From the sequence record PQ202980: a stretch of DNA of 55,550 nucleotides; one strand, given 5' to 3'. Of this stretch, positions 2,925-55,429 are shown in pieces; position 1 is the first letter of the stretch, and each line of letters opens with the position of its first letter. The translations under genes were made by a program, and so were the position numbers. The stretch is from Escherichia phage CSP1C. The notes beneath the pieces were generated by a model that was not told the DNA's origin, made no database searches, and worked only from the letters and a program-made list of their open reading frames with translations.

Positions 2925-3019
2925 TTGCAACTTCCAAATTGATTGGTTTATATTAACGAACACGGGGCTGGGACGGCTCAGCCCCAAAAACGTCACACGG
3001 GTGACAACGGAGATAAGAA

Positions 3020-3892
3020 ATGAAAAAGAGTTCTGTAGCTATTAATGTTGGTATGGCTTTAATTAATCCACGCGCTCGCGGTGAAGGTGATGTGGAACTG
3101 GAATACGAATATGCATCTGCGGAAGAGATTCCGGCAGAGTTTGCTGCTCTTTACGCAGAGCAGGGCGGTAAATACGTTCTTGCAAAAGTTAAAGGTGTAG
3201 CCCCTGCTGATAGCGTTCGTCGTCTGGAAAGTGCGTTAGCTAAAGAACGTAACGACCATCGTCAGGTGAAGCAACAGATTAGCGCACTTGGGCGTCCGGT
3301 TGAAGAAGTCCTTGCGGACCTTGATCGTATCCCTCAACTGGAAGCTGCCGCTAACGGTAAAGGTACTCCGGAAGACATCGAAAAGATGGTTAAAGCCCGT
3401 CTTGCTCCACTCGAGCGTCAATTGCAAACTGTAGCAGCTGAACGCGATTCCGTTAAACAGGAAATTGAAGGCTACCGCACTCGCGAAACTAAAGCGAAGA
3501 TTAAAGATGCAGTTATTGCCGCTGCTTCTGGTGCTAAATTGCGTCCATCCGCTATCGAAGACGCTGTAACTTATGCACAGTTGCAGATGACCGTCGACGA
3601 GAACGGCAATGTGGTTACGAAAGATGGGGCTGGTGTAACTCCTTACCTGACTCCGGCTGACTGGCTGAACGAAATCCTTCCGAAACGTCCGCACTGGGTT
3701 GAAGGATCTGCTGGTGGTGGTGCATCTGGTCCGGGCGCTGGTGGCCATCACGGTGAAGATCCATACAGCCACGACGGTTGGAACATCTCTAAGCAGATGA
3801 ACCTCTGGAAAACTAACCAATCTTTAGCTAAACGTTTAGCTGAAAAGAATGGCGTAGACCCGCTGAAGCCTGTACGTCCTGCTAAGAAATAA
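3020..3892 (+). CDS. putative scaffolding / head morphogenesis protein
   Basis: 290 aa, charged and helical with Gly-rich C-terminus, between portal and major capsid gene; SD GGAG. Confidence 0.4.
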   Translation: MKKSSVAINVGMALINPRARGEGDVELEYEYASAEEIPAEFAALYAEQGGKYVLAKVKGVAPADSVRRLESALAKERNDHRQVKQQISALGRPVEEVLADLDRIPQLEAAANGKGTPEDIEKMVKARLAPLERQLQTVAAERDSVKQEIEGYRTRETKAKIKDAVIAAASGAKLRPSAIEDAVTYAQLQMTVDENGNVVTKDGAGVTPYLTPADWLNEILPKRPHWVEGSAGGGASGPGAGGHHGEDPYSHDGWNISKQMNLWKTNQSLAKRLAEKNGVDPLKPVRPAKK

Positions 3893-50736: not shown

Positions 50737-51002
50737 TTACCGCTCAAGAAGCTCGTGAATTAAGTGATAAGCTGGATATTAGCGAAGATATTGAATTTAT
50801 CAGTGATAGCATTCGCGTAGCTGCTACAAAGGGATACAATAAAGTATCACTTGTAACTAAATACGGGGCTGTTGGCAATCCTGACACTCAAGACCCAACC
50901 ATTATGAAGATTGCTAAATGGTTAGCTGATTCTGGTTTTACTGTCCTATACTATCCTTCAATGGACCAACGGGATAACGAGCGTACTGAGGTGGCCTGGT
51001 GA
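50733..51002 (+). CDS. hypothetical protein
   Basis: 89 aa ORF overlapping upstream stop. Confidence 0.4.
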   Translation: MITAQEARELSDKLDISEDIEFISDSIRVAATKGYNKVSLVTKYGAVGNPDTQDPTIMKIAKWLADSGFTVLYYPSMDQRDNERTEVAW

Positions 51003-51069
51003 TTGAAGAAAATATCAAATATTGGAAAGGTTTTATTGACGAAATGCTGAAACCATTGGAGAAGAAATA

Positions 51070-51462
51070 ATGCTATTAGTCGTCACCGGAGGGCGTAATT
51101 TTAAACATGTAGAGTATATTTATGCTCAACTTGATAAGTTGCATACGCAAAGAAGGATAACCACACTTCGCCACGGTGACGCTTCCGGTGTTGACCGGAT
51201 TTGCGCACATTGGGCAGAGCGCAACGGTATTAAGACAGAAGCGTTCCCTGCGCCGTGGGGCAATCTTTCCTTACCAAATACCAAGATACGGTATAACGCC
51301 AGAGGTGCTTATAATGCACAAGCGGGCGCTTACCGTAATCAATTAATGCTGGATACTGATCCTAGACCAGATCACGCTATTGTGTTTCCGGGCGGAGCTG
51401 GTACTATGGATATGTACAGACGGATTAAAGCATCCGGTATCCCTTACACATTAGCGGAGTAA
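51070..51462 (+). CDS. SLOG/DUF2493-like Rossmann-fold protein (predicted nucleotide-binding)
   Basis: Gly-rich motifs VVTGGRNF, HGDASGVDRI and FPGGAGTMDM in LOG/DprA-like order; SD GGAGAAG. Confidence 0.45.
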   Translation: MLLVVTGGRNFKHVEYIYAQLDKLHTQRRITTLRHGDASGVDRICAHWAERNGIKTEAFPAPWGNLSLPNTKIRYNARGAYNAQAGAYRNQLMLDTDPRPDHAIVFPGGAGTMDMYRRIKASGIPYTLAE

Positions 51463-51465
51463 ATA

Positions 51466-51936
51466 ATGGCTGACGTTAAAACTATTGTTGATGCAATGGA
51501 CGAATCCAAAGACTGCCAACTGAAGAAGTCGTTTGAAGTAAAACAGGTTACAGAGACTCAGTTAATAGCAAGATTCGCACGTCATTGCGGCTTGGGGCGC
51601 GGGAAAGACTGGAACGGGCTTATTGTTATGCCTACATCACAGATCCTTGTCTATGTCCGTAATGTTGTAGAAGATGTTCTGCGTCTTCAGGTTGAAATCG
51701 GTGATGTAGAAATTAACATGACCGCGAGCTCTACCATTGTGGTTAAATGGCAGACGGGCGAGACACTTCGTTTAGAAGCGTGCCATTGCGCTAAGAGCTT
51801 GCATCACCTACGCGGTTGTCACTACCAGTTTGTTGGCTTTGTGCATCTACAAGGGTTAAGCGGGCGTACGGCGATGGTAGCGCGTTTGCTGCTGCGTCCT
51901 TATAATAACGAGCCGGAAGTCATATACGAGGCATAA
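51466..51936 (+). CDS. hypothetical protein with Cys/His cluster
   Basis: 156 aa; ACHCAKSLHHLRGCH suggests metal binding. Confidence 0.4.
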   Translation: MADVKTIVDAMDESKDCQLKKSFEVKQVTETQLIARFARHCGLGRGKDWNGLIVMPTSQILVYVRNVVEDVLRLQVEIGDVEINMTASSTIVVKWQTGETLRLEACHCAKSLHHLRGCHYQFVGFVHLQGLSGRTAMVARLLLRPYNNEPEVIYEA

Positions 51937-51937
51937 G

Positions 51938-52360
51938 ATGATTAAACATGTCAAACAGCCAACTTTAAATACATGCGTTTCTGCGTGTTTGGCAATGATC
52001 CTTAATAGACCTGTAGAAGAAGTAATTGCGGAATTTCATGATCGATATTACAACAACTGGGAAATAACAATTTCCGAATATTTAGTACAAAACAATGTTG
52101 ACCACATCTGTTCTGTGGGCGGTGGGCGTGAGACTATATACATGGGTGGTTTGTTTTTGTGCACTGTCCCAAGTCTCAATGTTCCTGGAGCACTGCATCA
52201 GGTTGTGATCGATACAACTAATCACAAGTTTATTGTACATGACCCAATTAAAGGTTGGGAAGGTAAAAAGTTCTACGTTGGCCCGGATCAAGATCCTGAA
52301 CAGCCAGGAGCATTTATCATTCATACTTGGGTTAAAGACGTTGAGATTGTGCTTAATTAA
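51938..52360 (+). CDS. papain-fold cysteine peptidase, C39-like
   Basis: N-terminal KQPTLNTCVSACLAMIL matches the C39 Q-x5-C..ACLAMI signature; downstream HQVVID and IVHDP give candidate His/Asp. Confidence 0.5.
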   Translation: MIKHVKQPTLNTCVSACLAMILNRPVEEVIAEFHDRYYNNWEITISEYLVQNNVDHICSVGGGRETIYMGGLFLCTVPSLNVPGALHQVVIDTTNHKFIVHDPIKGWEGKKFYVGPDQDPEQPGAFIIHTWVKDVEIVLN

Positions 52361-52422
52361 AAACCTTGCTATCAGATAACCCTTCATTGTATTGTGTACC
52401 CATCGAATAAGAGGGGTACACA

Positions 52423-52608
52423 ATGACCAAACTATACGCCGGATTGTTTTTATTTGCGACGTTAATGTTCGCTGGGCTTTATACCTATACAGTAGTCGAA
52501 CAACCTTCCACGGTTATCCGAATCTTTGCAAGTACAGGGCTTTGTATCTGTCTTATTCTATTTGTTTTATGCATTGTTATTATCCAAGACCAAAGGAAAA
52601 TTAAATGA
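52423..52608 (+). CDS. small membrane protein (2 TM)
   Basis: 61 aa with two hydrophobic helices; stop overlaps next ATG (ATGA). Confidence 0.45.
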   Translation: MTKLYAGLFLFATLMFAGLYTYTVVEQPSTVIRIFASTGLCICLILFVLCIVIIQDQRKIK

Positions 52609-53069
52609 CCACAATTGCGTTTGATGGAAAAGTATTAGCTGCGGACCGTGGAGTTATGCGCGGGGAAGTTGTGACTGCATATAAGAAAGTTCACAGCGTA
52701 AATGGGCATCGTGGACGGTTTTTACTGGGTCTGTGCGGCCTTACAGCATTCACCGATCAAGTGCTGCGTTATTTTAATAGCGCTGAACCTGTTAAGTTCC
52801 CAGATATTAAAGTTTACAGCAAAGATGATGATTACGGGCAAACTTGCGGTCTTGCGGTTACTCCGGAAGGTACTTGCCATTTTATTTACAATGATGGTAC
52901 GTTGAGCGAGCCTATGCTGGACGGCTGGGGGTCGGATGGTAGCGGTTGTGTGTTTGCTGCGGGAGCTCTGGCTGCTGGTGCAAGCGCACGCGAAGCTATC
53001 GAGCTAGCAATCAAGCATACCACATGTGCATTTCTTGGCGTTGATACAATATCGTTTGAGGGTTTTTAA
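52605..53069 (+). CDS. Ntn-hydrolase, proteasome beta / HslV-like peptidase
   Basis: N-terminus MTTIAFDGKVLAADRG (Thr directly after Met) and later GSDGSG motif fit the proteasome/HslV fold. Confidence 0.5.
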   Translation: MTTIAFDGKVLAADRGVMRGEVVTAYKKVHSVNGHRGRFLLGLCGLTAFTDQVLRYFNSAEPVKFPDIKVYSKDDDYGQTCGLAVTPEGTCHFIYNDGTLSEPMLDGWGSDGSGCVFAAGALAAGASAREAIELAIKHTTCAFLGVDTISFEGF

Positions 53070-53330
53070 ATGACTACATTCAGTCACCTGATCCCACCTG
53101 CTTATCACAGCAAGGTAGTTGACCACGGGACGCATGTTGTAATTGGTGGCGAAATCTTTATCACAGATAACGAGGAAATCGCCATTGCAATTATTGACAG
53201 CACTCAGCATGACTTTATGGTTATCCTGCAACACGAACCCGATAACTTCACTTTTTACTCCAGCTACGGGGTCGATAAAGGTGGAAAAAGCCTTGTTAGC
53301 TGGTACATTAGCGAGTGGTTTGACGGGTAA
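53070..53330 (+). CDS. hypothetical protein
   Basis: 86 aa; ATG directly after upstream stop, SD GAGGG. Confidence 0.45.
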   Translation: MTTFSHLIPPAYHSKVVDHGTHVVIGGEIFITDNEEIAIAIIDSTQHDFMVILQHEPDNFTFYSSYGVDKGGKSLVSWYISEWFDG

Positions 53331-53412
53331 TCTCCTTAGATCAATTCTCCTTGCGCCGTATCAAGTTTCTCTGTTACCCTTGAGTGGTTCATGTCAAGCG
53401 GAGGAACTCGAT

Positions 53413-53850
53413 ATGGCACTTCAACCTCGTGGTATTCGTAATAACAATCCAGGCAATATTCGCTGGGGTGACAATTGGCAGGGCTTAGTTCCTGCTGATA
53501 AGCGGACCGATAAATCTTTTGCTCAATTCACGCAACCGATTTACGGCATCCGCGCTCTGGCGAAAGTCCTGACCAACTACACCAAACGTGAAGGCTTACC
53601 CAATGTGGGTAAGAAAAACATCGACACTGTACGTGAAATTATCTCTCGCTGGGCTCCGCCTAACGAAAACGATACGGAAGCGTATATTCGTTCTGTTGCC
53701 AAAGCAATTGGTGTTGAACCTAACGATCCAATCAATGTCTTCGACAAGACGATAATGTCAGGTTTGGTAAAAGCAATCATTCGTCATGAAAATGGCATGA
53801 TGCCTTACACGGACGACGTAATCAACCGCGCTATTGCAATGGTAATTTAA
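53413..53850 (+). CDS. putative endolysin / cell-wall hydrolase (family unassigned)
   Basis: 145 aa from ATG 53413 (SD GGAGGA) with N-terminal RNNNPGNIRWGDNWQG motif; assignment is positional (immediately upstream of holin and spanins). Confidence 0.4.
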   Translation: MALQPRGIRNNNPGNIRWGDNWQGLVPADKRTDKSFAQFTQPIYGIRALAKVLTNYTKREGLPNVGKKNIDTVREIISRWAPPNENDTEAYIRSVAKAIGVEPNDPINVFDKTIMSGLVKAIIRHENGMMPYTDDVINRAIAMVI

Positions 53851-53855
53851 CTGAT

Positions 53856-53877
53856 GGGGCGTCAGCCCCTTTTTATT
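53856..53877 (+). terminator. terminator/attenuator-like hairpin between endolysin-like gene and holin
   Basis: GGGGC gtca GCCCC followed by TTTTTATT. Confidence 0.5.
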
Positions 53878-53886
53878 GGAGGGAAC

Positions 53887-54231
53887 ATGTTCAACTCATC
53901 AAACGAACATTGGGCAGTTCTAGCGGGGTTTGCTCTGATTTCCCTCATTGGGGGAGCTCTCGGTTACGTCATGCGTACGATTGACGCTGGTAAGAAGGTA
54001 CGGATAAGCATTGCATGTCTTGAAGGTTTATCCGCCGCGTTCTTTGGCGTTATAATGTACGCGATCTACAGGGAGTTTAATATCAGCCTTTGGTTCGCTT
54101 TTGGCCTTGCTGGCCTATTCGCTTGGGCGGGTTCACGTGCTACGCTAAAAGCTCTAAAGTCGCTTCTAGCATCGCGGACAGGGATCAAACTCGACTCAGA
54201 GGACTGCAAACATGAAAATGATTCTAAATAA
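53887..54231 (+). CDS. holin (3 predicted TM helices)
   Basis: 114 aa from ATG 53887 with SD GGAGGG; three hydrophobic helices and charged C-terminus. Confidence 0.6.
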   Translation: MFNSSNEHWAVLAGFALISLIGGALGYVMRTIDAGKKVRISIACLEGLSAAFFGVIMYAIYREFNISLWFAFGLAGLFAWAGSRATLKALKSLLASRTGIKLDSEDCKHENDSK

Positions 54232-54688
54232 CTTCTTCAGTTTTATAAAAGCTAAACCGCGTCTATTTATCGAGTACCTGATGATTGGCGCGGTGGTGTT
54301 TCTATGCGGAGTGGCCGCTTACCTGTGGTCACAAAACGAGCTTAACAAATCAAATTTAAGCTTGGCTGAAGAACGTTTAACCGTTGTGGAGAAGGACAAT
54401 GCTAAGCTGAGCGAAGCTGTTGTATTTCTTGCTGCACAAAGGGAGAAAGATACGGACTCTTTCAAGAAACTAACTTCTGCAATTCAGGACGAACAACATA
54501 ACCACAAGTTGCTTCAGGACAAGTTGCAGACACTGGAGAAAAGCAATGCCGACGTCAAAGCTTATCTTAACGAGCGTATTCCTGATGATTTGCGCAGGTT
54601 GCTCGACGCAGACTCAACCTCCCCCAGCTCCACAGATAGTGAAGGTAAGACTACCCGCGCATCTACTGGTGGAATGTCGGGAAGTTGA
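54212..54688 (+). CDS. i-spanin (Rz-like)
   Basis: N-terminal TM helix then coiled-coil-rich periplasmic domain; overlaps the o-spanin gene. Confidence 0.6.
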   Translation: MKMILNNFFSFIKAKPRLFIEYLMIGAVVFLCGVAAYLWSQNELNKSNLSLAEERLTVVEKDNAKLSEAVVFLAAQREKDTDSFKKLTSAIQDEQHNHKLLQDKLQTLEKSNADVKAYLNERIPDDLRRLLDADSTSPSSTDSEGKTTRASTGGMSGS

Positions 54689-54851
54689 GAAAATTCCTTT
54701 GGTTTACACAAGAGATATTATCCGACGTTTACAGGATACAGAAACTGCTCTGACTGAATGTAAGCTAAGGGTTAAGGAAATCATACGCTATGAAGCTGAA
54801 AATGTTTCGCTTGATTTTGTAGGATCAAGCAATTATATTCAGCCTAAATAG
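54546..54851 (+). CDS. o-spanin (Rz1-like outer-membrane lipoprotein), partly embedded in the i-spanin gene
   Basis: Signal peptide ending LMICAGC followed by Pro-rich QTQPPPAPQ; starts in the +1 frame inside the i-spanin gene. Confidence 0.55.
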   Translation: MPTSKLILTSVFLMICAGCSTQTQPPPAPQIVKVRLPAHLLVECREVEKIPLVYTRDIIRRLQDTETALTECKLRVKEIIRYEAENVSLDFVGSSNYIQPK

Positions 54852-54871
54852 CAATAAGAAGGGGAGCTTCC

Positions 54872-55429
54872 ATGAACGGGGCAAGTCAAGAGCAATATGA
54901 TCGTGACTGGACGAACTATATCCAGTATGCAAATAGCTTGTCCGCTGACGAGATGGCAATACGTGACAAAGTTGTTGCTGAGTATATGTTCGACTACAAT
55001 TGGACTAACGCTTGCATGAGATGCGGGTTCAATGCTATGTTTGCACAGGAGCTTGGCCAACGCTTTGCCACGGACTGTTACGTTCGATGGAAGCTCAAGG
55101 AGATTGAAAGATCCCGTGTTCAACGTACTTCTGAGCAAGCTAACATTGAAGCAGACCTAGAGCGTCAGCATATCATTGAAGCATTAAAACGTGAAGCTCA
55201 TTATACAGGACCGGGATCTTCTCAAGCTGCTAGAGTAGCCGCATTGGGCAAGCTTGCACAAATTTATGATTTGGATGCTCCCAAGAAGGCTAAAATTGAT
55301 GTTACTAACAGAGGCGGCGTAATGATAGTCCCTGCTGTAGCAAATATTGACGAATGGGAAAAAACTGCATCCGAGTCTCAACAACGACTAGTTAAAGAGA
55401 CTGAAGATGGAGCTAAACCGACAACCTGA
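54872..55429 (+). CDS. terS: terminase small subunit
   Basis: 185 aa ORF with SD AAGGGGAG directly upstream of the terL N-terminus; assignment positional. Confidence 0.5.
   Translation: MNGASQEQYDRDWTNYIQYANSLSADEMAIRDKVVAEYMFDYNWTNACMRCGFNAMFAQELGQRFATDCYVRWKLKEIERSRVQRTSEQANIEADLERQHIIEALKREAHYTGPGSSQAARVAALGKLAQIYDLDAPKKAKIDVTNRGGVMIVPAVANIDEWEKTASESQQRLVKETEDGAKPTT

Follow-up and report, generated by a model that had tools for sequence, protein, structure and literature searches.

The question raised by this locus is what a small protein resembling the C39 peptidases would do in a phage. The locus lies in a DNA stretch of 55,550 nucleotides from Escherichia phage CSP1C (record PQ202980), which was analyzed at its full length and is called the window below. 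An open reading frame (ORF) of 140 amino acids (aa) was found at positions 51938–52360 (+), with the ATG at 51938 and the TAA at 52358–52360. The original prediction, made from the sequence of the window, was that this ORF encodes a C39-like papain-fold cysteine peptidase upstream of the lysis cassette or, alternatively, a cell-wall endopeptidase of the CHAP or NlpC type. The ORF was confirmed as real, exactly as first described: a GAGG Shine-Dalgarno sequence was located 7 nt 5′ of the ATG, the stop codon of the upstream ORF was followed by the ATG two bases on (TAAGATG), and the motifs that had been quoted were present (KQPTLNTCVSACLAMIL at residues 6–22, HQVVID at 87–92, and IVHDP at 99–103). 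Over bases 51000–55000, the identity to Cronobacter phage CSP1 (KY982929.1) was 100%, and that to phages of the genus Seuratvirus, among them CAjan and Seurat, was approximately 91–98%. By sequence identity, the window is thus that of a Seuratvirus-like siphovirus, Cronobacter phage CSP1, in whose GenBank record the ORF is labelled hypothetical protein CSP1_037.

The answer that we consider probable is that the gene encodes a free-standing, cytoplasmic, Gly-Gly-directed endopeptidase of the C39 type (clan CA, papain-like), which would cut a host or phage protein. The protein matched phrog_4049 ("unknown function") end to end (E = 1e−55). By tblastn, it was found in 188 phage records, nearly all annotated as "hypothetical", with identities of 84–100% in Seuratvirus, 56% in Hafnia phage yong3, approximately 44% in Kuttervirus and other Ackermannviridae, 34–40% in Nonagvirus JenP1 and JenP2, and approximately 30–36% in Vequintavirinae, Pseudomonas Samunavirus, and Vibrio Enhodamvirus (phiVC8, VP2, and VP5). 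An exhaustive profile search yielded 929 representatives (50% identity clusters) at E ≤ 1e−3 and 596 at E ≤ 1e−10, nearly all of them 135–160 aa long. The ten longest relatives carried heterogeneous and uninformative extensions (YunG-like, MazG-like, zinc ribbon, and unknown PHROGs), which are probably gene-calling run-ons. When contigs of bacterial genomes were searched with a profile from a narrow alignment, homologues were found only in Pseudomonas and one Methylophaga, and these are probably prophage copies. No match to the protein was found in NCBIfam or PADLOC, and the relatives in BFVD were otherwise uncharacterised. The C39 domain assignment itself is not new, as "Peptidase C39 domain-containing protein" is the UniRef name of the exact sequence and of its homologues from Kuttervirus and Vibrio, and individual submitters to GenBank have used the labels "papain-like cysteine protease" or "ABC-type bacteriocin transporter peptidase domain".

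The catalytic residues were examined in an alignment of 108 diverse members with a mean column identity of 26%. Invariance was confined to Q7, C13, H87, D102, and P103, and at least 90% conservation was seen for A19, M20, V77, S79, L80, N81, G106, and Y113. The Q7/C13/H87/D102 tetrad and P103 were also kept in a 10-sequence alignment of approximately seven phage groups and a Pseudomonas genome copy. The oxyanion Gln and catalytic Cys of the predicted signature, and the candidate His (HQVVID) and Asp (IVHDP), are therefore all among the invariant residues. Because of these residues, the phrog_4049 match, the 188 records, and the 929 representatives, the quoted motifs are far beyond chance. The N-terminal catalytic motif (Q-P-T-L-N-T-C-V-S-A-C-L-A-M-I-L, residues 7–22, positions 51956–52003 (+)) was delimited with Pfam Peptidase_C39, hhalign, and predicted secondary structure. 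The His strand and Asp-Pro turn (H87-Q-V-V-I-D ... I-V-H-D102-P103) were located at 52196–52246 (+) and appear equivalent to the C39 motif "HFVVL ... DP..G". A Gln about six residues ahead of the Cys accompanies the Cys/His/Asp triad in C39 enzymes, and this arrangement was found here: the spacings (Q-6-C, C-74-H, and H-15-D) and local motifs (C..A.LAM, H.VV, and DP..G) match those of C39 peptidases. In a HMMER alignment to LahT150 (6mpz), all four tetrad residues were in register, but the match was weak (E = 1.4); with hhalign, the N-terminal motif aligned to the LahT150 motif MQMEALECGAASLAMVL with a probability of 64%. As the catalytic Cys is present, the protein differs from the inactive HlyB-type C39-like domain (CLD), which has the C39 fold without this residue.

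The fold was predicted with AlphaFold2 using a 15-sequence alignment (pLDDT 93.8, pTM 0.89). In the model, Cys13 opens a helix (residues 13–22), and His87 and Asp102 lie on or beside successive strands, giving a papain-like alpha+beta fold with the nucleophile at a helix N-terminus. Among the 60 matches listed from structure comparison of the model were the C39 domain of PCAT1 (score 9.7), LahT150 (9.6), the ComA peptidase domain (9.3), the C39-like protein 3erv (9.1), the pseudomurein endoisopeptidase PeiR (9.0), Staphopain C (8.1), and the StbD/CdiA-CT C39 toxin domain 8ssm (8.1; at 21%, the highest identity among the 60 listed). Josephins, UfSP, AvrRpt2, and Atg4 scored approximately 5.7–7.3. 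Weak matches to Pfam Peptidase_C39 were obtained for 37 of the 108 relatives (best E = 2.4e−6), and the other Pfam matches among the relatives were to C39_2 (7), C58 (6), DUF3335 (2), and Phytochelatin (1). With the exception of C58, these families fall within papain "cluster I", which is distinct from NlpC/P60 and CHAP (PMC10318531). The predicted C39-like papain fold is thus borne out by the Pfam matches of the relatives, the confident model, the tetrad spacing, and the invariant His and Asp. We conclude from these sequence-based comparisons that the protein is a C39-like cysteine peptidase, very probably active, from a phage clade of stand-alone members of an already known kind of enzyme.

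The features that accompany C39 domains in export systems were searched for next to the gene. The protein is free-standing at 140 aa, with no ATP-binding cassette (ABC) exporter fused or co-encoded as in the PCAT/AMS systems: none was present among the annotated genes of CAjan (bases 1–50,000), in the CSP1 record for the remainder, or among the neighbours in related loci. A regular expression for the double-glycine leader consensus, which can miss atypical leaders, matched no ORF in the window. In 98 related loci it gave 38 scattered matches among 47,587 ORFs, mostly on the wrong strand and with no consistent neighbour, in agreement with the original remark that no obvious GG-leader substrate is nearby. 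The protein sequence contained no signal peptide, transmembrane (TM) segment, or wall-binding domain, and with only six residues ahead of Gln7 there is no pro-peptide. Since pro-region, signal peptide, transporter, and leader-peptide gene are all lacking, neither maturation of an exported bacteriocin nor attack on the cell wall is expected.

The gene contexts of the homologues point to the cell interior. In Ackermannviridae, Vequintavirinae, Vibrio podophages, and Pseudomonas prophages, the contexts were early, replication, or accessory regions: the homologue was found among small early-type genes in Vequintavirinae and Vibrio phage phiVC8, and between replication genes and NinG in Pseudomonas-type temperate phages. 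The predicted position upstream of a lysis cassette holds for the window, where the gene is approximately 1 kb upstream of the endolysin, holin, and spanin genes, and for Nonagvirus JenP2 and Pantoea phage Vid5, but not for those four groups; the adjacency is lineage-specific. This distribution and the presence of a full, separate set of lysis genes speak against action on the cell wall and for an accessory or take-over function inside the cell. Promoter-like and terminator-like counts in the region equalled the shuffled expectation, so no expression timing was deduced for the gene from them.

In the mechanism that we propose, the enzyme would be made inside the infected cell together with early, middle, or accessory genes. 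Cys13, at the N-terminus of the first helix, would attack the scissile carbonyl, His87 would act as the general base, oriented by Asp102, and Gln7, six residues ahead of Cys13, would form the oxyanion hole. By analogy with characterised C39 enzymes, a site of the Gly-Gly type in a cytoplasmic protein would be presented beside a hydrophobic recognition groove and cut; the bond hydrolysed would be a peptide bond or perhaps an isopeptide bond. The target would be an intracellular host protein or, less likely, a phage protein.

Several observations weigh against this proposal. The Pfam Peptidase_C39 match of the protein itself was below threshold (E = 0.058), with 13.7 bits where the gathering score is 22, and it covered the 22 N-terminal residues only (model positions 3–24 to residues 3–24). 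Searches of PDB sequences with the protein, two family profiles, and the Kuttervirus homologue gave nothing significant; the link to C39 entries in PDB therefore comes through structure comparison only. The Gly-Gly specificity is extrapolated from relatives at 14–21% identity, and no study of phage C39-like proteins and no biochemistry for family members was found in the literature. Finally, no universal neighbour that could be a partner or substrate was found in 80 IMG/VR loci, the best neighbour cluster being present in 7 of 31 dereplicated groups.

Among known systems, the C39 domains of PCAT/AMS transporters (PCAT1, ComA PEP, and LahT150; MEROPS C39, PF03412) have in common with the phage protein the tetrad, the three local motifs, and the lack of a pro-region. 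The phage protein differs from them in having neither an ABC transporter nor a GG-leader gene, in being viral and, as proposed, cytoplasmic, and in its sequence, which is 16–19% identical and under the Pfam gathering score. The nearest functional analogues would be the stand-alone C39 toxin domains Cpe1 (type VI secretion system [T6SS]/contact-dependent inhibition [CDI], E. coli) and StbD-CT (CdiA-like, Citrobacter rodentium). Both are delivered into Gram-negative cells, where they act as cytoplasmic GG-specific proteases (PMC12136450 for Cpe1; 10.64898/2026.05.07.723447 for StbD-CT). Like the phage protein, these are C39 domains of approximately 140 aa acting alone, and they come from a genetic element in conflict with the cell. 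Their substrate is a cellular protein in the Gram-negative cytoplasm and not a secreted precursor, as would be the case for the phage protein. In contrast to them, the phage protein has no delivery or entry (T6SS/CDI carrier) domain and no adjacent immunity gene, and the downstream genes are not conserved across lineages. Other stand-alone C39-like proteins (Peptidase_C39_2, DUF3335; 3erv) are larger, decorated, bacterial, and often secreted or transporter-associated, whereas the phage family is minimal.

The comparison with the toxins leads to a specific version of the proposed function, in which the enzyme would cut host GyrB and/or ParE at the LHAGG|KF motif of the ATP lid, with a resulting shutdown of DNA topology and replication in the host. 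Cpe1 and StbD-CT both target type II topoisomerases, and cleave GyrB at G101|G102 and ParE at G97|G98 within LHAGGKF (PMC12136450; 10.64898/2026.05.07.723447). In both sampled subfamilies of Ackermannviridae, the homologue was embedded in the operon of the phage's own topoisomerase II, between the large (gp39+60-like) and medium (gp52-like) subunit genes, with stops and starts adjoining or overlapping its own (Salmonella phage Marshall, 3980–4429; Shigella phage AG3, 10467–10913). The large subunit of this phage topoisomerase has LYAGSNF at the position of LHAGGKF in GyrB, and so lacks a Gly-Gly at the equivalent site. Host gyrase is also a target of the phage proteins Igy and Gip (PMC10886550). 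On the other side, AGSNF is common to T4-type topoisomerase II with or without a C39-like gene and so does not discriminate, no topoisomerase linkage was found outside Ackermannviridae, and most carrier phages, including Seuratviruses according to the CAjan annotation, have no topoisomerase of their own. Lambdoid prophage carriers, in addition, probably need host gyrase. The phage family was structurally no nearer to the toxins than to the transporter C39 domains, and no sequence-level match to the toxins was detected. Because of the linkage in a single viral family, the absence of a Seuratvirus topoisomerase, the generality of AGSNF, and the lack of any special closeness to the toxins, the case is circumstantial, and we regard this version as unlikely, although it is the best placed of the alternatives.

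Less likely still is an anti-defence role, in which the enzyme would be an isopeptidase that takes off Gly-terminated conjugates (ubiquitin-like or CD-NTase) formed by Bil or type II CBASS (Cap2) systems, thus shielding phage proteins from tagging. Conjugation of a ubiquitin-like protein to the tail fibres of phages is reported for Bil systems (10.1101/2023.09.04.556158), and the location of the gene in accessory and early regions is typical of anti-defence genes. The structure comparison speaks against this role, as C39 endopeptidases outscored every deubiquitinase. Bil and type II CBASS occur only sporadically in the hosts, which contrasts with the near-core status of the family in several lineages. 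No PADLOC or anti-defence family was matched, and the literature search gave no report of a phage cysteine deconjugase.

The classical C39 role, the removal of a double-glycine leader from a phage or host peptide precursor (bacteriocin, microcin, or signalling peptide), is improbable. The closest structures are those of leader peptidases, and a missing transporter would not by itself preclude activity. ComA PEP and LahT150, for example, are active as isolated C39 domains without their transporter. The same property of isolated C39 domains has been noted elsewhere (PMC12136450). Against this role stand the lack of an ABC transporter and of a leader-GG ORF in the window, the scatter and mostly wrong orientation of the matches in the 98 loci, and the lack of a conserved small neighbour gene. 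Slightly less credit is given to a function other than proteolysis, in which the thiol of the papain fold would be used on a small molecule or a protein side chain, for acyl transfer or amide chemistry, as in phytochelatin synthase, BtrH, and transglutaminases: peptidase relatives scored higher and were matched far more often, and no conserved associated biosynthetic genes were seen.

The weakest reading, and a very improbable one, is a cell-wall endopeptidase or lysis accessory (CHAP/NlpC-P60-like or PeiW-like) working with the adjacent lysis cassette, for which the distance of about 1 kb in the window, JenP2, and Vid5 would speak, as would the fact that NlpC/P60 and CHAP hydrolases are also papain-superfamily thiol enzymes common in phage lysis modules; the alternative in the original prediction falls because neither the fold and profile match of these hydrolases, nor a means of wall access (signal peptide, signal-arrest-release [SAR]/TM segment, binding domain, or virion location), nor a conserved lysis linkage was found, because the tetrad is of the C39 type (Q/C/H/D), because the phage already has endolysin, holin, and spanins, and because the homologues of the other groups are far from lysis genes. 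PeiW, PeiP, and PeiR (MEROPS C71) act on pseudomurein, outside the membrane, and have wall-binding repeats at the N-terminus; the phage protein shares neither property, and the walls of its hosts contain murein.

The genes around the peptidase gene in the window were also annotated. Two genes upstream, a SLOG/YspA-like protein of the nucleotide-binding type (YAcAr, DUF2493; Pfam PF10686, E = 1.5e−17) is encoded at 51070–51462 (+). It is followed at 51466–51936 (+) by phrog_25149, a Cys/His-rich protein of 156 aa containing EACHCAKSLHHLRGCHYQF, whose translation is coupled to that of the C39-like gene. By sequence, phrog_25149 matched no family or structure, and it was ruled out as a partner or substrate, being restricted to Seuratvirus. 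Downstream, a 61-aa membrane ORF (52423–52608) separates the C39-like gene from a gene for an HslV-like N-terminal-Thr peptidase (52605–53069 (+); phrog_1040, E = 6.9e−32, with a weak Pfam Proteasome match), and phrog_23528 (53070–53330) lies between the latter and the endolysin gene. The endolysin is followed by holin, i-spanin, and o-spanin genes, and then by that of the small terminase subunit.

Some further features were observed in this region. An intergenic hairpin at 52390–52425 (+), 3′ of the C39-like gene, has 14 bp (a 12-bp stem and a 2-bp extension; −20.1 kcal/mol, z = −3.1 against shuffles) and sequesters the ribosome-binding site and ATG (52423) of the 61-aa membrane ORF. As it lacks a T-run, a role in translation or mRNA stability is more likely than one in termination. 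Among sigma-70-like matches in the region, the best was TTGACA-16-TATGGT (10/12; 53194–53221 (+)), which lies within the phrog_23528 ORF, just 5′ of the endolysin gene, and could be a separate lysis-cassette promoter; the candidate is weak because the overall promoter-like counts equal chance expectation. The o-spanin gene was placed at 54546–54851 (+) (Pfam LysC, E = 8e−12; lipobox ...LMICAGC), overlapping the 3′ end of the i-spanin gene (54212–54688). In the CSP1 GenBank record only its 3′ part is annotated (54699–54851, hypothetical), and the deposited start is therefore probably wrong.

The HslV-like peptidase was the one recurring neighbour of the C39-like gene, located directly or nearly directly downstream, and it accompanies that gene in Queuovirinae-like phages. 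The pair was found in Seuratvirus, Nonagvirus, Vidquintavirus, Craquatrovirus, and several metagenomic contigs, over which the identity of the C39-like protein went down to 29%; the two genes were adjacent in 11 IMG/VR loci and in JenP2, Vid5, and PSTCR7. Being the sole recurrent neighbour, the HslV-like peptidase may form a two-protease module with the C39-like peptidase, and we infer that both belong to the same functional unit. The paired carriers are all siphoviruses of approximately 57–62 kb; if they descend from a common ancestor, as they may, the linkage could be inherited and need not reflect independent selection. Among Seuratviruses, the HslV-like peptidase was 97% conserved, against 84–89% for the C39-like gene. 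The HslV-like protein starts with MTTIAFDG, and Thr2 would be its N-terminal nucleophile once the Met is removed; its comparison with PDB sequences gave nothing useful. In the Vid5 locus, the SLOG/YspA-like gene (2965–3333) is exactly between the two peptidase genes, with overlapping stops and starts, which suggests a three-gene module with the SLOG/YspA-like protein as a possible third member. In the Seuratvirus annotation (CAjan NC_028776, bases 1–50000), a scaffolding protein and a major head protein are listed and no prohead protease.

The puzzle posed by the family is that hundreds of unrelated phages, including Seuratvirus, Nonagvirus, Ackermannviridae, Vequintavirinae, Vibrio podophages, and Pseudomonas prophages, keep a minimal and apparently active C39 protease without a transporter or leader peptide. 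As the family is absent from Pfam and of "unknown function" in PHROGs, one characterised member would annotate at least 900 sequence clusters. If the protease cleaves a conserved host protein, for which GyrB/ParE may be one candidate by analogy with the toxins, regulated proteolysis would join the known mechanisms of host takeover or anti-defence, and a small sequence-specific protease would be of practical interest. Should GyrB/ParE prove to be the target, the enzyme would represent a viral proteolytic shut-off of host topoisomerases, and the same enzyme-target pair would have been recruited independently by phages and bacterial toxin systems. Although the domain call is ordinary, the enzyme is a worthwhile target for experiments in view of how widespread the family is and of its possible parallel to topoisomerase-cleaving C39 toxins.
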